Of a DNA stretch of 44,082 nt, positions 13,540 through 27,933 are shown in pieces. Source of the DNA: Pseudomonadota bacterium. Lineage in GTDB: Bacteria; Myxococcota; Myxococcia; Myxococcales; JAKAPL01. A model generated the notes under the pieces. It worked only from the letters and a program-made list of their open reading frames with translations. It was not told the DNA's origin and made no database searches. The number at the start of each line of letters is the position of its first letter. Position 1 is the stretch's first letter. The position numbers were made by a program, and so were the translations under genes. Location: the NCBI GenBank assembly GCA_027451705.1, contig DAIDIT010000042.1:1-44082 (forward strand), given 5' to 3'.

Positions 13540-14390
13540 TTGCGGACATCCCCGTCACGAGCGTCCGCTCGCTGGATGAGGCGTACGCCGTCCTCGCCCG
13601 GCGCGCCGCCGGCCTGCGCGTCCTGGCGGGCGGGACCGACCTGATGGTCCAGATCCAGGCGCGCGTCGGGCTGGAGCGCATCGGCCACATCCTCGACATT
13701 TGGAAGGTTTCCGAGCTGCGCCACGTCACCCTGGACGGCGGAACGCTTCGCGTGGGCGCGCTCGCGACCTACACCGATCTGCTCCGCTCCGAGGCCGTGC
13801 GCGCGGCGCTGCCTGCCCTGGCGCAGGTCGCGCGCGAGGTTGGCGCCTGGGCCATCCAGAACCGCGGAACGCTCGGCGGCAACGTCTGCAACGCGTCGCC
13901 CGCCGGCGACACGCTCCCCATTCTGATCGCGGCCGGCGCGACCTTCGTCGTCGGAGGCCCGCGCGGCGAACGGCGGATCGCTGCCGAGGAGTTCTTCGTC
14001 GCCTACCGCAAGACCGCGCTCGCGGCCGACGAACTGCTGCTCCGCGCCGAGCTTCCGGCCCTCGCGCCCGGGGAGCGGCTGGTCTACCGCAAGGTCGGCA
14101 CGCGCCGCGCGCAGTCGATCTCGCGCGCGTCCTTGGCCGTGCGCGCGCGCGTCGAAGCGGGCGCGTTCCGCGGCGTCCGGATCGCGGCCGGCTGCGTCGC
14201 GCCCGTGCCGCTGCGCTGTCGCGCAACCGAGGCCGCGCTCGAGGGCGGTGGGCCCGGTGCGGCCGCGTTCGCCGCCGCCCGCGCCGCGCTCGACGGCGAA
14301 ATCCGGCCCATCGACGACCTGCGCGCGACGGCGGCCTACCGCCGGCGGGTGGCGGGCAACGTCCTCGAGCAACTGCTCGCCGCGTTCTGA
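13536..14390 (+). CDS. Xanthine dehydrogenase FAD-binding subunit
   Basis: ATGA overlap; LAGGTDL, IQNRGTLGGNVCNASPAGD and PIDDLRATAAYRR motifs. Confidence 0.93.
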   Translation: MIADIPVTSVRSLDEAYAVLARRAAGLRVLAGGTDLMVQIQARVGLERIGHILDIWKVSELRHVTLDGGTLRVGALATYTDLLRSEAVRAALPALAQVAREVGAWAIQNRGTLGGNVCNASPAGDTLPILIAAGATFVVGGPRGERRIAAEEFFVAYRKTALAADELLLRAELPALAPGERLVYRKVGTRRAQSISRASLAVRARVEAGAFRGVRIAAGCVAPVPLRCRATEAALEGGGPGAAAFAAARAALDGEIRPIDDLRATAAYRRRVAGNVLEQLLAAF

Positions 14391-21132: not shown

Positions 21133-22740
21133 ATGCCCGCTGCCGCCGAAGGCGCCGCTCCGCCGATACCCGAGGTGGCACCCGATCCCCCGCCTCCACG
21201 CACGGCGCGCTCGGCGCTCGTCGTCGGTGCCGGCATCCTCCTCTCCCGGCTCGTCGGGTTGATCCGGCAGAGGGTCTTCGCGCACTTCTTCGGCGACTCG
21301 TGGATCGCCGACGCCTTCAGCGCGGCGCTGCGGCTGCCAAATATCACCCAGAACCTCCTCGGCGAGGGGACGCTCAGCGCGTCCTTCATCCCGGTCTACG
21401 CCCGCAGCCTCGGGCGAGGCGACGAGGCGCGCGCGCGCGCGTTCGCCCGCGGCGCGCTCGGCCTGCTCGCGACGGCGGTGCTCGCGCTCTCGATCGCCGG
21501 AGTCGTCGCCGCGCGGCCCCTGACCCACGTCCTGGTCCCGGGCTTCACCGGCGACCGGCTCGACCTCGCGGTCCACCTCGTCCGGATCTTCTTCCCGATG
21601 ACGGGCCTCCTCGCGCTGTCGGCCTGGTGCCTCGGTGTCCTCAACAGCCACCGCCGCTTCTTCTTGCCTTACGCGGCCCCGATCCTCTGGAGCCTCGCGC
21701 AGATCGGCGCGGTGCTGCTCGGCAGCCGGCACTCCGAGGGGGCGATGCTCGCGCTCTGGATGGGCTACGGGGCGCTCGCGGGCGGGGGGCTGCAACTGCT
21801 CGTGCAGATCCCGCAGGCCCGCCGGCTCCTCGGCGGCCGCCTCGCCCCGACGGCGCACTGGCGGACCGACGACGTCCGCCAGGCGACCCGGGCGCTCGGG
21901 CCGGTGGTGGTCGGGCGCGGCATCGTCCAGCTTTCGGCGCTGCTCGACACTTTCCTCGCGAGCATGCTGAGGACGGGCGCCAACGCGACGCTCGGTTACG
22001 TGCAGACGCTCTACGTCCTGCCGATCAGCCTCTTCGGGGTGGGCGAGGCGGCTGCGGTCCTGCCGGAGATGGCGCGCGAGACGGCCGCGCAGAGCCTCGA
22101 GGAGCGCCACCGAGCGCTCCGCCGCCGGCTCGGCGAATCACTGACCCGCATCGGTTTCACGACCGTGCCTACGACCGTCGCCTTCGTGGTGCTCGCGACC
22201 GAAGTCGTCGGCGCCTTTTACCAGACCGGCCGTTTCGGCGCGAGGGCGACACAGGTCGTCGCCTCCGCGCTCGCGACGTACATTCTTGCCCTGGTCGCCA
22301 ACGCCTCGGTCCGGGTCATGGCCTCGGCCTTCTACGCCCTCGACGACACGGCGACGCCCGCCCGGCTGGCGGTCCTGCGCGCCGCGATCAGCGCCACGCT
22401 GAGCTTCGTGCTGATGCAGCGCTTCGACATCGTCGGGCTGTGCGCGGGCGCCGCGGCGGCAGGCTGGATCGAAGCGCTCGCGCTGGGCTTCATGCTGCGG
22501 CACCGGCTCGGTGGGCTCGAGCTGCCGGCCGGCCGGTGGCTCCGTTTCTTCGCGGCGTCGGCCCTCGCCGCGGCCGCCGGCCTCGCGGCCGCGCGGGCCA
22601 GCCACGGCTGGCCGGTGCTGCTCTCGGCGGCCGTCGCGCTGCCGGCCTTCGGGCTCGCCTATCTAGCGTCGGCCGCGGCGCTCGGCACGCCGGACGTGCT
22701 GGAGTTCGTCTCCGCGGTCCGGCGGCGCTTCACCCGGTAG
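21133..22740 (+). CDS. murJ: Lipid II flippase MurJ (MviN)
   Basis: LLSRLVGLIRQ, ADAFSAALRLPN, LLGEGTLSASFIPVY and LYVLPISLFG; about 14 hydrophobic segments. Confidence 0.92.
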   Translation: MPAAAEGAAPPIPEVAPDPPPPRTARSALVVGAGILLSRLVGLIRQRVFAHFFGDSWIADAFSAALRLPNITQNLLGEGTLSASFIPVYARSLGRGDEARARAFARGALGLLATAVLALSIAGVVAARPLTHVLVPGFTGDRLDLAVHLVRIFFPMTGLLALSAWCLGVLNSHRRFFLPYAAPILWSLAQIGAVLLGSRHSEGAMLALWMGYGALAGGGLQLLVQIPQARRLLGGRLAPTAHWRTDDVRQATRALGPVVVGRGIVQLSALLDTFLASMLRTGANATLGYVQTLYVLPISLFGVGEAAAVLPEMARETAAQSLEERHRALRRRLGESLTRIGFTTVPTTVAFVVLATEVVGAFYQTGRFGARATQVVASALATYILALVANASVRVMASAFYALDDTATPARLAVLRAAISATLSFVLMQRFDIVGLCAGAAAAGWIEALALGFMLRHRLGGLELPAGRWLRFFAASALAAAAGLAAARASHGWPVLLSAAVALPAFGLAYLASAAALGTPDVLEFVSAVRRRFTR

Positions 22741-23486
22741 GGGCCCTCGAGCGGGTCCGGGCCGCCTCCCGCGATGGAGGCGACGCGCTCGCGCGCGAGC
22801 GCGACGGCCTCCTCGGAGGCGTCGCATCCCCGGAAGCCGCAACCGGCGCGGAGCGCCGCGACGGCGGTCGAGCCGCTGCCGACGAACGGATCGCAGACCA
22901 CGAAGCCCGGCTCGGCGCTCGCGCGGACGAGGGTCTCGAAGAGGGCTACAGGCTTCTGGGTCGCGTAGGCGGCCGTCGTGATGCGGGGCACGCGGACGAT
23001 GTCCGGGAGGTCGCGCCGCGACAGGGGGCGCTTCCCCTTGCTCGCGAAGACGATCAGTTCGTGGCGCCGGCGGTAGTAGTGGCCCATCCCCAGGAGCGCC
23101 TTGTCCCAGACGAGGAGGTTCTTCACGTCGAAAACCTCGCGGACGAGGTGGCCGAGCGAGAGGAGCGAGTAGCTGTCGAACATCACATACACGTGCCGAT
23201 CGTCGCGCAGCACGCGGTGCAACTCCCGCAGCAGGGCGCGGAACGTCTCGGGGTCGTCCTGGAACTCCTGGAACCAGCGGCCGCCGGGCCGTCCGGCGTC
23301 GCTGTAACGGCCGACGATGCGCCCCCGGCCGAGCATGAGGTGCCGGTTCATGCCCGAATAGGCGGGGTCGGTCACGACGAGGTCGACCGACGCGGCGGGC
23401 AGCGATTGGAGGAAGGCCAGGCAGTCGCCGTGGTCGATACGCCAGAGGGGTGCCTCGTTCGCTTCGGTCGAGACGGCGGCGGCCAT
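22659..23486 (-). CDS. Orphan N4/N6 DNA methyltransferase (beta class)
   Basis: HGDCL, VDLVVTDPAY (motif IV), YRRRHELI, TQKP and VCDPFVGSGST (motif I) in beta order. Confidence 0.85.
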   Translation of the reverse strand: MAAAVSTEANEAPLWRIDHGDCLAFLQSLPAASVDLVVTDPAYSGMNRHLMLGRGRIVGRYSDAGRPGGRWFQEFQDDPETFRALLRELHRVLRDDRHVYVMFDSYSLLSLGHLVREVFDVKNLLVWDKALLGMGHYYRRRHELIVFASKGKRPLSRRDLPDIVRVPRITTAAYATQKPVALFETLVRASAEPGFVVCDPFVGSGSTAVAALRAGCGFRGCDASEEAVALARERVASIAGGGPDPLEGPYRVKRRRTAETNSSTSGVPSAAADAR

Positions 23487-23529
23487 GGGGCCTATCATGC
23501 ACGCAACTCTGACATCGAGAGGTGGCGCC

Positions 23530-24192
23530 ATGGAGAAGGGGTACGGGCAGGGCGATTCCGCCATCGCGGGATGGGCGGTCGCGACATTCGATCCGGAGGA
23601 CGCGGTGCTGCGGGAGATCCGTGAGCGCTCGCTCGCGAACCGGATGCCGGACATCCAGGTCGCCGCCATGGACGGCCGGCTCCTCGAACTGCTCGCGCGC
23701 GCGTCGGGGGCGCGGCGGGCGGTCGAGATCGGCACGCTCGGCGGCTACTCGGGCGTCTGCCTGCTCCGCGGCATGGGGCCGGGCGGCCGGCTCGACACGT
23801 TCGAGATCTCCGAGACTCACGCGGCGGTGGCGCGCGAATCTTTCCGGCGCGCGGGGCTCGAGGCGCAGGCGCGCGTTCACGTCGGGCCCGCCCTCGAGAG
23901 GCTCCGCGACGTCGAGGCCGAGGCGCCGTTCGACCTCTGCTTCATCGACGCGGACAAGGTGAACTACCCGGCCTACCTCGCCTGGGCGGGCGAACATCTG
24001 AAGATCTCCGGCCTCGTGCTCGGTGACAACGCCTTCGCCTTCGGCGAGATCGCGCGGGCACCGAGCGGGACGGGCGCGGCCTCGACCGCGGCGCTGCAAT
24101 CGTTCGCGCTCGACCTCGCCCGCGGCGGCCGCTTCCGGTCGACGATCATCCCCACCGCCGAAGGCCTCGCGATGGGCGTCAAGATCTGTTAG
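23530..24192 (+). CDS. SAM-dependent O-methyltransferase (COMT/CCoAOMT-like)
   Basis: VEIGTLGGYSG, FDLCFIDADKVNY and GLVLGDN motifs. Confidence 0.9.
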   Translation: MEKGYGQGDSAIAGWAVATFDPEDAVLREIRERSLANRMPDIQVAAMDGRLLELLARASGARRAVEIGTLGGYSGVCLLRGMGPGGRLDTFEISETHAAVARESFRRAGLEAQARVHVGPALERLRDVEAEAPFDLCFIDADKVNYPAYLAWAGEHLKISGLVLGDNAFAFGEIARAPSGTGAASTAALQSFALDLARGGRFRSTIIPTAEGLAMGVKIC

Positions 24193-24682: not shown

Positions 24683-26146
24683 ATGGACGCGGGCGGGCTG
24701 CGCCGCTGGACCCGGGAGGCCGGCCCGCTCGTGGCCGGCCGCGCCGCGTCCGCGGCGGCGGGGCTGCTCGTCCCGATCGTCCTCGCGCGGCTCCTCGTTC
24801 CCGACCAGTACGGATCGTTCAAGCAGCTCTTCCTCGTCGCGACCACGGGCGCCGGGCTCGTCCAACTCGGCATGTACCAGTCACTCTACTATTTCCTGCC
24901 GCGCGAGCCGGAGGCGGGCCGCGCCTACCTCGTCCACGCGACGGCGTACCTCGCCGCGGCCGGCCTCGCGGTCGGGACGGTGCTATGGGCTGCCGGGGGC
25001 CCGATCGCCGCGCTGATGCACAATCCTGCGCTGCGTCCCGCCGTCCTTCCCATGGCACTGTACGCGGCGTTCTGGACCGCGAGCGTTCCGCTCGAGCACG
25101 GACTCATCGCCTCGGGCCGGATCGGGCGGGGCGGCCTCGCCTACGTCGTCTCGGAGAGCGTGCGCGTCGGCGTGCAGGTGGGCGCGGCGCTTGCCTTCCG
25201 CAGCGTGGTCGCGATCCTCTGGGCGTCGGCCGCCTTCGCCTTCCTGCGGACGGCCGTGACCTGGGCGATCGCGCTCTCGTCGCTGCGAGGGCCCCTGTGG
25301 GAAGGCGGGCGGCTGCGGTCGCAGTGGAGCTACTGCCTGCCGTTCGGCGCCGCCGCGCTCCTGATGATCCCGCAGCAGTCGCTCCACCAGTACGTCGTGA
25401 GCGCCTGGGCGACTCCGGCCGAGTTCGCCCTCTACGCGATCGGCTGTCTCCAGCTCCCGGTCGTCGAACTGCTCTACACGCCGATCTCGGATCTCATGAT
25501 CCTGCGGATCGGCGCCGCGGACCGCGGCGGCGACGCGTCCGCGGCGCGCACGAGTTTCCGCGAGGCGGTCGGCAACCTCGCCTGGGTTTTCTGGCCGCTG
25601 GCGGCGGAGATGTGGGCCGTGGCGCCGGCCGCGATCCCGTGGGTCTTCACCGCGCGCTACGCGGCGGCGGTGCCGATCTTCCGGGTCTCGATCCTCTCGC
25701 TCGTCATCGCGGCCTTCCCCGTCGACGGCGTACTCCGGGCGCGGGCGCGCAAGCGCTTCTTCTTCTGGGCGCAGGTGGGCAAGCTGGCACTGACCGGCGT
25801 GCTCGTGACGGCCGGGCTGCATCTCTTCGGGCTGCGCGGCGCGGTCGGCGGGCAGGTGGGGGCGCAGGCGATCGTGGCGGCGGCGATGCTCTGGGAGTCG
25901 GCGCGGGCGCTCGGGACCTCGGGCGCGGAGCTCTTGCCCTGGCGCCGGCTCGCCGCCCACGCGCTGCCGGCGGCGCTCGCCGGGGTGGCGGCGGCGGCGC
26001 TGCGGGGGCGCCTCGCGCACGCGCTGCCGGAACAGGTCGTCGCCGCGGGCCTCGTCTTCGCGGTCATCTGGGGCGCCGGCCAACTGGTGATCTGGAGGGG
26101 CAGGCGCGGGGCGTTCGGGCCCGCCGCCACCGCCGCGGTTCCCTGA
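24683..26146 (+). CDS. Wzx-like oligosaccharide flippase (MOP superfamily)
   Basis: PIVLARLLVPDQYG, LGMYQSLYYFLP, EFALYAIG and YAAAVPIFR; about 12-14 TM segments. Confidence 0.85.
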   Translation: MDAGGLRRWTREAGPLVAGRAASAAAGLLVPIVLARLLVPDQYGSFKQLFLVATTGAGLVQLGMYQSLYYFLPREPEAGRAYLVHATAYLAAAGLAVGTVLWAAGGPIAALMHNPALRPAVLPMALYAAFWTASVPLEHGLIASGRIGRGGLAYVVSESVRVGVQVGAALAFRSVVAILWASAAFAFLRTAVTWAIALSSLRGPLWEGGRLRSQWSYCLPFGAAALLMIPQQSLHQYVVSAWATPAEFALYAIGCLQLPVVELLYTPISDLMILRIGAADRGGDASAARTSFREAVGNLAWVFWPLAAEMWAVAPAAIPWVFTARYAAAVPIFRVSILSLVIAAFPVDGVLRARARKRFFFWAQVGKLALTGVLVTAGLHLFGLRGAVGGQVGAQAIVAAAMLWESARALGTSGAELLPWRRLAAHALPAALAGVAAAALRGRLAHALPEQVVAAGLVFAVIWGAGQLVIWRGRRGAFGPAATAAVP

Positions 26147-26165
26147 GGAGCGGCTTCGAGTCGAT

Positions 26166-26240
26166 TGGAGGCGCCACCCAGATTCGAACTGGGGAATGAA
26201 GGTTTTGCAGACCTTTGCCTTACCACTTGGCGATGGCGCC
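26166..26240 (-). tRNA. tRNA-Cys (GCA)
   Basis: GGCGCCATCGCCAAGTGGTAAGGCAAAGGTCTGCAAAACCTTCATTCCCCAGTTCGAATCTGGGTGGCGCCTCCA folds into a cloverleaf with anticodon GCA, U discriminator and encoded CCA. Confidence 0.98.
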
Positions 26241-26252
26241 GGAAGCGCAGTC

Positions 26253-26282
26253 GAGGTAGCACGCGGTCCGTTCGGGCGTCAA
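26253..26282 (-). promoter_or_regulatory. Probable tRNA promoter
   Basis: Minus strand TTGACG-18 bp-TACCTC with TGn extension, 12 nt upstream of the tRNA. Confidence 0.45.
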
Positions 26283-26313
26283 GCGCCCCGGGCCCGAGAG
26301 GCGGGACGTCCGG

Positions 26314-26766
26314 CTACGGCCGCGCCTTGATCTTCTCGCGCTGGCGCTTGCCCTTCGTCTTGCGGATGACGCGGGTTCGGCGCCGCTTCTCCTTGGCCGC
26401 GACCTTCGTCTCGACGGGGATGTGGTGGCGGCCGCCGGGGCGGCGCAGGTGCGGCTCCTTCTGGACCGGATCGAGGCTGTCGTAGAGGGCGCGGAAGGCG
26501 GCCTGGAGCTTGTCGAGGTAGGCGACGAGGGCGGGGAGCGACGCGGTGCGGCCGACCAGCGCGGACTTCAGCGCGAGCTGCACGCGCTCGACGGCCCTGT
26601 GCGGCTCGAGGTGCCGATCGAGCTCGGCGAGGAGGTCTCGCGGCGTGCGCAGCTCGCCCGCGAAGGCGAGCAGGGTGCCTTCGGGGACGCGGTGGAGGAG
26701 TCGTTCGCGGAAGTCGGCCACGCGGGCCTTGATGCGGTGGTGGACGGCGTTGCGGGTGCGGGACAT
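26314..26766 (-). CDS. Small helical basic hypothetical protein (150 aa)
   Basis: MSRTRNAVHHRIKARV... with a very basic C-terminus (KVAAKEKRRRTRVIRKTKGKRQREKIKARP). ATG 26766 lies just outside the repeat array, although the frame is open to 27039. Confidence 0.75.
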   Translation of the reverse strand: MSRTRNAVHHRIKARVADFRERLLHRVPEGTLLAFAGELRTPRDLLAELDRHLEPHRAVERVQLALKSALVGRTASLPALVAYLDKLQAAFRALYDSLDPVQKEPHLRRPGGRHHIPVETKVAAKEKRRRTRVIRKTKGKRQREKIKARP

Positions 26767-26820
26767 GAGGCCCACCAGGGTAGACCCGAAGCTCGGGTCG
26801 CACCAGAGGAGCGTGCGGTC

Positions 26821-27260
26821 GGGCGACTCGAGGCTCGAGTCCAGGCGCCGGCATTCGGTGGAACGCCCCACCGAATGGAGCCGGGTCGAGTGCGAGCGCG
26901 ACTCGGGCGAGTCGAAGCTCGACTCGTGCCGCCTGCAATCGGAGGGGCGTTCCACCGATTGCGGCAACGTCGAATGCAAGCTCGACTCGGCCGATTCGGC
27001 CCTCGAGTCGGTCTCTCTGCATTCGGAGGTGCGCTCCACCGAATGCAGGAAGGGCGAGTCGAGGCTCGAAGAGGCCGAGTCGAGCTTCCAATCGGCCTTT
27101 CTGCATTCGGTCGTGCGCCCCTCCGAATGCAGTCAGGCCGAGTCGAGCCTCGACGGGCCATTTCGACGTTCGAGTCAGCCTCCCTTCATTCGGTGGAGCG
27201 CCCCTCCGAATTCAGGAAGGTCGAGTCGAGCCTCGCGGAGGTCGACTCGAGCTCGAATCC
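26821..27260. repeat. Degenerate tandem array, ~84-bp period, five palindromic hairpin units
   Basis: Hairpin cores (G)CAWTCGG-N12-CCGAWTG(C), less perfect in the fifth, start at 26851, 26935, 27019, 27103 and 27186. Linkers carry GAGTCGAG/CTCGA palindromic submotifs at ~21-bp spacing. Confidence 0.92.
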
Positions 27261-27523
27261 CGTCCCATCGAGGAGAAGCGGGGCCCCATCGGCGCTCGCC
27301 AGGCCGATCCTCGCGACGCCCGAGACGCCGCCGAGGAGCGCCATCGGGTCCCCGCGCGGGCGCCGCCACTCGACGGCGCAGCCTGCGACCAACCCGAGCC
27401 GGAAGGCGGCGGCGAAGGTCATCGACCGGAGAACGCGCGCAGCGCGCGCCTCGCGGGCAGGCCTTTCCGCCGCGGGGAACGAGGCGTGTCCGAGCCACCA
27501 CGTCCACCGCCGCAGCGGCTCGG

Positions 27524-27552
27524 TTGACAGCCTGGGGGGGGGGAACTAAGAC
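27524..27552 (+). promoter_or_regulatory. Sigma70-type promoter with G10 homopolymer in the spacer
   Basis: Perfect TTGACA (27524-27529), 17-bp spacer containing G10 (27534-27543), weak -10 TAAGAC (27547-27552), ATG at 27562. Confidence 0.6.
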
Positions 27553-27561
27553 CTGGGTTGA

Positions 27562-27933
27562 ATGCTGCGCCGAGGTTTCGCACTGGTGGGGGCAGTCTGC
27601 CTGGTCTTCTCGCCGGGAGCCGGTGGGCTCGGTCGCGCGCTGGCTTCGATGGACGCGTGCGGCTGCAACATGGGCCCCGACTGCCCGATGTGCCGGGCAC
27701 GCCGGATGCGAGAGAAGCGGGCGGCTGACCTGGCGCACCATTGTCCTTGCCGCCTCCAGCGGTCGACGGCCGCGGGACAGGGCGCCGCCTCGAGCACGGC
27801 TGAGTCCGATCCACAGGGCCGTCGGGCGGTCGCAACTCTGCCGTCTGCCGATCCCGACCGCTGGATATTGCCCGCGCTCCTTCCTCCCGAGTCCTGGTCC
27901 CCCAAGATCCCCCGTCGGCCGCCGCGCGCGTAG
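27562..27933 (+). CDS. CruR/CutF/DUF2946-like leader protein (signal peptide, Cys motifs, C-terminal RxPP)
   Basis: Signal-like N-terminus; CGC, CPMC and HHCPC motifs; Pro-rich tail ending PKIPRRPPRA-stop; first gene of an operon. Confidence 0.7.
   Translation: MLRRGFALVGAVCLVFSPGAGGLGRALASMDACGCNMGPDCPMCRARRMREKRAADLAHHCPCRLQRSTAAGQGAASSTAESDPQGRRAVATLPSADPDRWILPALLPPESWSPKIPRRPPRA

Follow-up and report, generated by a model that had tools for sequence, protein, structure and literature searches.

What does a long row of palindromic repeats do beside a gene for a small basic protein? The question is raised by a window of 44,082 nucleotides, the whole of contig C42 of a genome (G000; 3.59 Mb in 267 contigs, 72% GC, 69.7% complete) from an uncultured lineage of the Myxococcales, in which a palindromic repeat array of about 440 bases (26819..27260, no strand assigned; coordinates are numbered on the window) lies just upstream of a gene for a 150-amino-acid protein (26314..26766, minus strand). 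The original prediction, made from this sequence alone, proposed a two-part module of a structured array and an adjacent small basic protein. That proposal is strongly supported, and in a more general form: the window module exemplifies a pattern that is widespread among uncultured myxobacteria and undescribed, in which members of one protein family usually have their own 21-base-periodic array upstream.

The array comprises five 84-bp units and a partial unit, with a tail reaching 27260. A repeat search placed the unit starts at 26821, 26905, 26989, 27073, and 27156 (spacings of 84, 84, 84, and 83 bp), the five units spanning 26821-27239 with 65-80% identity to the reference copy. Tandem Repeats Finder (TRF) reported a period of 84 (4.6 copies, 26851-27235, 74% matches, score 325) and 21-bp sub-arrays at 26882-26926 and 27051-27091. 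Each unit consists of four 21-bp sub-units and is nearly self-complementary; set out in a 21-nt register, it resolves into two 21-bp GGNCGAGTCGAGNCTCGACTC dyads, of the GAGTCGAG/CTCGACTC type, and one 42-bp hairpin, GCATTCGG...CCGAATGC. The first hairpin core (GCATTCGG..CCGAATGG) occupies 26851..26878 and its equivalents 26935-26962, 27019-27046, 27103-27130, and 27186-27213, again with no strand assigned, and the cores show Watson-Crick pairing at 10-12 of 14 positions. These positions reproduce those first read from the sequence, and the proposed palindromic sub-structure of about 21 bp and near self-complementarity are borne out by the 21-nt rows and by two inverted arms of 127 nt (26906-27032 and 27033-27159) that are 77% complementary. 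The array is 72-75% identical to its own reverse complement and, equally, to a second array on contig C173. Its units abut, are all alike, and have no unique spacers, so that the features of a CRISPR array are missing; as had been noted from the outset, no cas, integrase, or transposase family was found by Pfam among the 29 window open reading frames (ORFs) scanned, the other window ORFs being left unscanned. One DNA run (share 0.07) yielded a 209-nt contig that corresponds to 26609-26817 and ends at the array edge.

The gene, stop codon included, runs from an ATG at 26766, 53-55 bp from the array, and its product has the Arg/Lys-rich C-terminus described at first reading. The public gene call is 241 amino acids long and extends into the array. 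Sequence comparison supports the ATG at 26766 as the true start, because the copies on C87 and C173 become similar at the protein level exactly there (MSR.RN is conserved), because differences 5' of it fall mainly on codon positions 1 and 2, and because the GC content at third codon positions is at most 0.78 in the array (0.78/0.59/0.59) versus 0.91 for the ORF frame as a whole. The same composition, the same distribution of differences between C42 and C87, and the one unit spacing of 83 bp led us to reject the array as coding sequence.

The same array type is directly followed by a paralog of the gene at three further sites in the genome. The C87 copy encodes a protein 79% identical to that of the window and has its array cut by the contig end; on C173 the array (13689-14148) precedes a gene whose product is also 79% identical and which the contig end cuts after residue 53; and the C38 copy is a degraded remnant. 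The array type is confined to these three contigs and C42, with a weak piece on C200. The flanks of the copies are unrelated, and the copies have diverged from one another (72-75% DNA and about 80% protein identity), the C87 copy keeping a perfect 20-bp dyad though the inner stem has changed on both arms. A search of 20 relatives found neither this array type nor the close protein subfamily of the window gene, of which no close homolog was found in the 40 other genomes searched. A word-index protein search returned the window's own 241-amino-acid call as its sole match, and two scans of JGI metagenome contigs returned no relative of the window protein. Comparison of the locus with relatives, as the original prediction had advised, showed the module to be absent at the syntenic site of G001, a genome of the same genus: there only about 95 bp separate the tRNA-Cys gene from the homolog of the window ORF at 27562, and synteny and alignment give window positions 26284 to about 27520 (gene, array, and 260 bp of unique sequence) no counterpart. 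The limits of this indel are located to about +/-20 bp, and no terminal repeats or target duplication were seen at the junctions, which were inspected by eye only.

The 150-amino-acid protein matches nothing in Pfam or NCBIfam. The multi-copy uncharacterised myxobacterial family suggested when the window was first read is real. An iterative hidden Markov model (HMM) search of six-frame ORFs found 40 members in G000, and the window protein matches the 119-position family profile A1 over its full length (HMM 1-119, E = 1.1e-34), including P74 and TR..RGT.GK. Members share the motif GNPxLxxFG ... K..TR..RGT.GK.Q, in which P74 and T105 are invariant in 21 sequences. Of 1.84 billion representative clusters, built at 50% identity, the profile matched 3156 at E <= 1e-3 and 1983 at E <= 1e-10; the named clusters are labelled "hypothetical protein [Myxococcales bacterium]", and the nearest Atlas clusters are Myxococcota hypotheticals. 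The family is present in five of the 201 sampled genomes of the class, which come from the small families f1, f2, and f6, and was not found among the sampled genomes of f5 (0/125) or f7 (0/43). PHROGs and Pfam searches with 71 family members gave scattered single matches only, none of these proteins nor the window protein matched a Y1 (HUH) or other Pfam transposase, and comparison of the profile with PDB sequences gave nothing below E = 0.48. A candidate on a viral contig (L162, 40% GC) proved spurious, having no family domain by HMM and no array. We found no description of 21-bp phased arrays or of the protein family in the literature covered, which excludes subscription journals.

Tandem-repeat periods in G000 pile up at 21 (67 of 386 TRF rows), 42 (72 rows), 63 (31 rows), and 84 (25 rows), and merging gives 91 arrays of at least 80 bp in the 3.59 Mb, with periods of 21, 42, 63, 84, 105, or 126 bp. 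Most are noncoding by composition. Their sequences differ, falling into 14 small groups and 49 singletons while the period stays at 21, 42, 63, or 84, and the units within a single array are highly homogenised (up to 95-98%). We scored as an array any 105-bp stretch within 1.2 kb upstream of a gene that reached a match threshold of 0.6 at lags of 21, 42, 63, and 84, and limited the upstream count to the 34 family genes whose upstream sequence extends for 400 bp or more. By this test 22 of the 34 family genes have an array upstream, versus 47 of 1203 control genes (Fisher p = 2.6e-21); downstream the count is 2/37, and a control with lags of 17n gives 0/37. Extending the search to 3 kb upstream finds an array at 25 of 37 family genes.

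The association holds in other genomes, and the periodic arrays expected upstream of homologs do recur. Across five other genomes and one contig of a metagenome-assembled genome (MAG), 19 of 31 family loci have an array upstream and none has one downstream (0/31), as none does with lag 17 (0/31). A 4-row alignment search returned one MAG contig, labelled Planctomycetales, with a 21/42-bp array upstream of a family gene. In G008 (152,510 bases sampled) the sole 21n array immediately precedes the sole family gene, and two of the four arrays in 397,364 bases of G004 likewise lie directly upstream of family genes. Array density per Mb is 46 in G001 and 17.5 in G003 (both f1, sampled DNA) versus 25 in the whole of G000; it falls to 7.5 and 5, with no period-21 peak, in the samples of two genomes where no family member was found, G020 (400 kb) and G005 (200 kb). 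The samples behind these densities are small and were not chosen blind.

About a quarter of the family genes also carry a strict promoter motif of the sigma-54 type between array and start codon. This motif, TGGCA[CTA]-N5-[CTG]TGC (-24/-12), has 69 sites on the two strands of G000; it stands 90-164 bp before the start codon of 10 of 37 family genes, versus 7 of 2118 controls, and at 9 of 31 family loci in other genomes. At six of the ten motif-bearing loci an array lies 130-437 bp upstream of the motif. Of the strict sites away from family genes, 3/59 have an array upstream, with about 2.4% expected by chance; the arrays therefore follow the family and not sigma-54 promoters in general. The window gene and its C87 copy have a loose motif only, at -39: in the window this sigma-54-like element, TGGTGC-N5-GAGC with GG-N10-GC spacing (26791..26805, minus strand; a weak match from a regex scan), lies 39 nt upstream of the ATG and overlaps a small hairpin (26784-26800). 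It stands at the same distance in the C87 copy and, by eye, also occurs in C173 and C38, and may act as a promoter. A scan of 26000-27700 for sigma-70 promoters and terminators returned 0 sites. The genome encodes rpoN (one Sigma54_DBD domain) and 27 Sigma54_activat domains of bacterial enhancer-binding proteins (bEBPs); bEBP genes stand beside family genes on C114, C131, C20, and C36, with the array between divergent genes on C131 and C20. The scanned neighbours of paralogs are signalling genes.

The original prediction had entertained a structured noncoding RNA cut into 84-nt units. Transcription of the array into a structured RNA, whether one that serves as a leader or one that is processed to units of about 84 nt, would be in keeping with the very stable single-strand fold of the array (-309.9 kcal/mol, z = -13.4; 0/100 shuffles as good) and with its position, since the array ends 53 bp from the ATG and a promoter upstream of it would include it in the transcript. 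Yet the palindromic build of the array lets either strand fold equally well, only tRNA-Cys reaches the Rfam gathering score in the whole window, and the stems of the window and C173 arrays bear no wobble signature: sense-strand mismatches are four G.T/T.G versus four A.C/C.A in the window and five versus seven in C173, and both sets of stems hold many A.A, G.G, and C.C pairs. Self-complementary folding (z <= -3) was found in 16 of 24 family-linked arrays, while the remaining eight fold no better than shuffles at that cutoff, five of them with z >= 0. Self-complementarity being common and not universal, the period, not the hairpin, is the conserved property. The six paralog arrays upstream of the strict sigma-54 motif lie, for that reason, outside the predicted transcript, and the C87 dyad, preserved through changes on both of its arms, is as much in keeping with a site for a symmetric protein as with an RNA stem. 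We consequently see no support for the processed 84-nt RNA, and regard an RNA role of either kind as highly improbable. In appearance the arrays are elements that act at the level of DNA, with mostly dyad sites lined up along one helix face, and do not resemble RNA.

The predicted structure of the protein is compatible with a symmetric partner for such sites. An AF2 model (pLDDT 88.8) shows a coiled-coil hairpin, with a helix at residues 3-26, a beta-hairpin at 33-40, and a long helix at 42-98, followed by a loop with the conserved proline and basic helices at 118-135 and 140-146. Homodimer prediction gave an ipSAE of 0.69 versus 0.00 for the best of three controls, a score attained in a benchmark by 20 of 30 proteins whose solved structures are pairs and by 1 of 23 whose solved structures are single chains. 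At least 81% of contacts are shared among the three runs, the pLDDT of the partner is no lower than 72, and the contacts are antiparallel along residues 45-94. The protein is thus predicted to form an antiparallel coiled-coil dimer. Foldseek against the PDB gave nothing at E <= 1e-3 (the best match being prefoldin beta, probability 0.44), and a wide VIA-align search gave a best Z of 6.7, to generic helical and coiled-coil structures. Neither a ribbon-helix-helix (RHH) nor a helix-turn-helix (HTH) fold was matched significantly, the best weak matches being prefoldin-like coiled coils.

We propose, tentatively and with confidence a little short of even, that array and protein form a cognate regulatory pair, a reading close to the binding scaffold that the original prediction gave among its examples. 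The 84-bp array would be the local form of a repeat array phased at 21 bp, or two helical turns, such as most genes of this family of small coiled-coil, basic-helix proteins have upstream of them in this uncultured Myxococcales lineage. In function it would be a regulatory platform of double-stranded DNA, its mostly dyad-symmetric sites aligned along one helix face. A dimeric protein, for which the product of the adjacent gene is the most plausible candidate, would bind it cooperatively, and the array would control the promoter between array and gene, which is of the sigma-54 type in about a quarter of the family. On this proposal the protein would bind its own array and regulate its own gene, and the two would co-evolve as a linked pair, which would explain a repeat sequence that is specific to each locus while the 21-bp period is kept. 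The case for a functional cis element is that the pairing is linked, upstream-only, and lineage-wide, and that the two-helical-turn period is conserved while the sequences are locus-specific and homogenised. The case for the adjacent gene as the source of the binder is that a protein encoded next door is most easily kept in step with array sequences that change quickly and are distinct at every locus, and that the predicted symmetric dimer and the dyad units fit; the conserved basic motif, K..TR..RGT.GK.Q, also counts in its support.

A bolder form of the proposal, which is rather unlikely, is that each paralog and its array make a self-addressed pair, so that one chromosome would hold dozens of mutually orthogonal recognition pairs with a hitherto unseen DNA-binding architecture. 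That architecture would be an elongated antiparallel coiled-coil dimer with a basic helix at each end; the 21-bp repeats would undergo concerted turnover with co-evolving protein specificity, and orphan arrays would be targets in trans.

Several observations weigh against a cognate pair. An array within 3 kb is missing from 12 of the 37 family genes, and of the 91 arrays about 75 have no family gene beside them. Independence of array and gene, which the original prediction would have counted against itself, is thus partly seen, in that arrays of the 21n class also occur away from the family, while homologs do have adjacent arrays. No family-linked array belongs to eight of the 14 array sequence groups, some orphan arrays form dispersed groups with a shared tail, and the arrays of C114 and C196 share one BLAST group though their proteins are only 38% identical. 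The structure searches above suggest no known DNA-binding fold. The basic helix is the most conserved part of the protein and therefore cannot alone explain dozens of different specificities. Finally, a family gene stands no more than 5 kb from 7 of the 27 bEBP genes, versus a random mean of 2.4 (P = 0.008), and this enrichment makes the bEBPs another candidate binder.

That last point leads to the strongest of the alternatives, in which the arrays are enhancer-like upstream activating sequences (UAS) for sigma-54 bEBPs or other dimeric transcription factors and the family proteins are merely regulated cargo. The excess of strict motifs at family genes here and in other genomes, the enhancer position of the array at six of the ten motif-bearing loci, and the presence of rpoN and of bEBP genes adjoining or enriched near family genes are all what it predicts. 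We nonetheless consider it unlikely, if far from implausible: arrays are not a general feature of the strict sigma-54 sites outside the family, the window gene itself has just the loose motif, and at least 63 array sequence groups stand against 27 bEBPs. Fast, locus-specific turnover of arrays is also harder to fit with an unlinked trans factor; the best-matching family members of the same genus (orthology not established) are 39-63% identical, and the arrays of one such pair, L011/C187, differ by eye. In another alternative the arrays are selfish or neutral satellite DNA, fast-evolving and built on a slippage-prone 21-bp unit, that has piled up in long upstream spacers and has no specific binder. 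The homogenised units, the contig ends at which arrays break the assembly, the location of most arrays beside unrelated genes, and the dispersed-looking groups with a shared tail, such as that on C5, C29, and C160, would all suit such DNA. Against it, arrays at family genes are placed strictly upstream (downstream counts of 0/31 and 2/37), and the period stays a multiple of 21 whatever the sequence. The single array of the G008 sample, sitting directly upstream of its single family gene, and the lack of a period-21 peak in the family-lacking samples point the same way, and we think the satellite explanation quite unlikely.

Mobility was also part of the original prediction, as a non-autonomous cassette, and array and gene might move together, with the palindromic array as a recombination or end structure; this is compatible with the other readings. 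What stands of it is the multi-copy occurrence, in three or four dispersed copies with unrelated flanks, the indel between congeners at the tRNA-Cys site, and the array type and close protein subfamily, neither of which was found in the 20 relatives. What does not is any sign of the machinery or the scars of movement: no transposase or integrase was found among the 29 ORFs scanned, and no terminal inverted repeats or target duplication were seen by eye. The copies are moreover old, the array lies on one side only, and a deletion in G001 explains the indel equally well, all of which makes a mobile cassette improbable. The cognate pair remains the reading we prefer.

How does the array compare with known repeat systems? 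It is not a CRISPR array, a repetitive extragenic palindromic (REP) element with a REP-associated tyrosine transposase (RAYT), an integron cassette, or a known RNA. REP and BIME sequences, and REPINs with their RAYT, are imperfect intergenic palindromes in many copies, sometimes beside a small gene, and the present arrays share these three traits; they differ in that this array type occurs at three or four loci only and not at tens to hundreds, in that the units are tandem and phased at 21 bp, and in that the protein has no Y1/HUH transposase domain. NtrC-type enhancer sites are dyads. The -24/-12 motif upstream of a quarter of the family genes, the bEBP genes enriched nearby, and arrays that are dyad-rich, helix-phased, and placed 130-437 bp further upstream recall the sigma-54 promoters with UAS bound by enhancer-binding proteins (PMC7175178, PMC7057263), whereas known enhancers have two or three sites versus 5-20 homogenised repeats here, and arrays are rare at other sigma-54 sites (3/59), the window copy having a loose motif only. 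Borg elements carry pervasive tandem direct repeats (10.1101/2022.05.18.492195) and resemble our genome in having many locally unique, rapidly formed, highly homogenised repeat regions; their repeats are not known to have a fixed 21-bp period or a link to one gene family, and the elements are archaeal and extrachromosomal.

In its working, the module would be most like the centromere and iteron arrays with linked binders of partition systems. Examples are the plasmid partition centromere and binding protein of R1, parC/ParR (PMC2241845), those of the ParMRC families of Clostridium perfringens plasmids (PMC9426499), and the pMF1 iterons with an orphan ParB in Myxococcus (PMC3235114); in such systems the protein binds the repeats cooperatively and autoregulates, and related systems are told apart by the specificity of repeat and protein. 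Helically phased tandem repeats that adjoin or precede the gene of a small protein are common to both, the role of binder being a conjecture in our case. The differences are that no ParA, ParM, or TubZ gene was found among the window ORFs scanned; that the present arrays are chromosomal, with about 40 paralogous pairs per genome; that their period is 21 bp, versus 10-11 or 20 bp; and that the protein has no RHH or HTH structural match and resembles none of the proteins in a plasmid collection, in which a typical family member was likewise without a match.

Some further features of the arrays and the family were recorded. Examples of arrays elsewhere in G000 are C59:8978-9322, C143:872-1031, and C150:8375-8680, and many lie at contig ends, where they appear to break the assembly. 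An orphan family of 42-bp arrays with GGTATG..CATACC dyads (C5:1519-1700, C29:1-220, and C160:869-1260) ends in a shared tail, GACCGCCCGTTTTGC...GAATTTCGG, and resembles a dispersed element; one copy of this type lies about 600 bp upstream of a bEBP gene. A Gly/Ser-rich subfamily of the proteins (C24, C34, C35, C87 (6178), and C166) has a conserved leader, ACGGCA-N7-CCGGCGGTGG(G/A)AGCG, about 60-75 bp before the start codon, which may be a variant -24/-12 promoter. Some family members are immediately preceded, on their own strand, by a gene of one of two small partner families without a Pfam match (C131:5307-5705; upstream of C196:9158; C102:8689-9270; C11:5709-6371; C250:1244-1732), and where an array is present it precedes the two-gene unit.

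Around the module, the tRNA-Cys gene (26166-26240, minus strand) is a neighbour outside it. The original prediction had placed the module beside this gene, and so it is, although the position is incidental, the C87 and C173 copies having no tRNA nearby. Integration linked to the tRNA was considered and rejected, since tRNA-Cys is also present at the G001 site that lacks the module and no tRNA gene is near the C87 or C173 copies. Distal to the array is a unique segment of 260 bp (27261..27520, no strand assigned) without another copy in the genome. A 78-amino-acid ORF with a lipobox-like N-terminus (LVAGC; 27186-27422, minus strand) starts within it and enters the array from the distal side, perhaps as the stump of a gene that the module carried with it or cut. 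Further on, a run of ten Gs (27534-27543) fills the 17-nt spacer from TTGACA to TAAGAC (27524-27552, plus strand) upstream of the ORF at 27562, an element read by eye and not listed by the consensus scan; the G001 homolog has TTGACA-N17-TATTAG with no G-run. This could be a slippage-prone promoter. Elsewhere in the window, an ORF with a DNA methylase domain, N6_N4_Mtase (22662-23744, minus strand), overlaps the start of an O-methyltransferase ORF (23485-24192, plus strand) by about 260 bp, and one of the two starts is probably wrong.

If the pairing of array and gene is functional, a large unannotated family of 3156 clusters gains a testable role, and a rule is revealed that current annotation ignores, namely repeats placed every two helical turns whose sequence is different at each locus. 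The window itself illustrates the cost to annotation, in a public gene call of 241 amino acids that enters the array where we find a protein of 150. A functional pairing would also explain the fragmentation of MAGs at these loci in the lineage. Should the orthogonal pairs be real, they would constitute a natural set of protein/DNA-array pairs with a possible new DNA-binding architecture, and would amount to a class of bacterial chromatin or regulatory scaffold that is new and in many cases connected to sigma-54 promoters.

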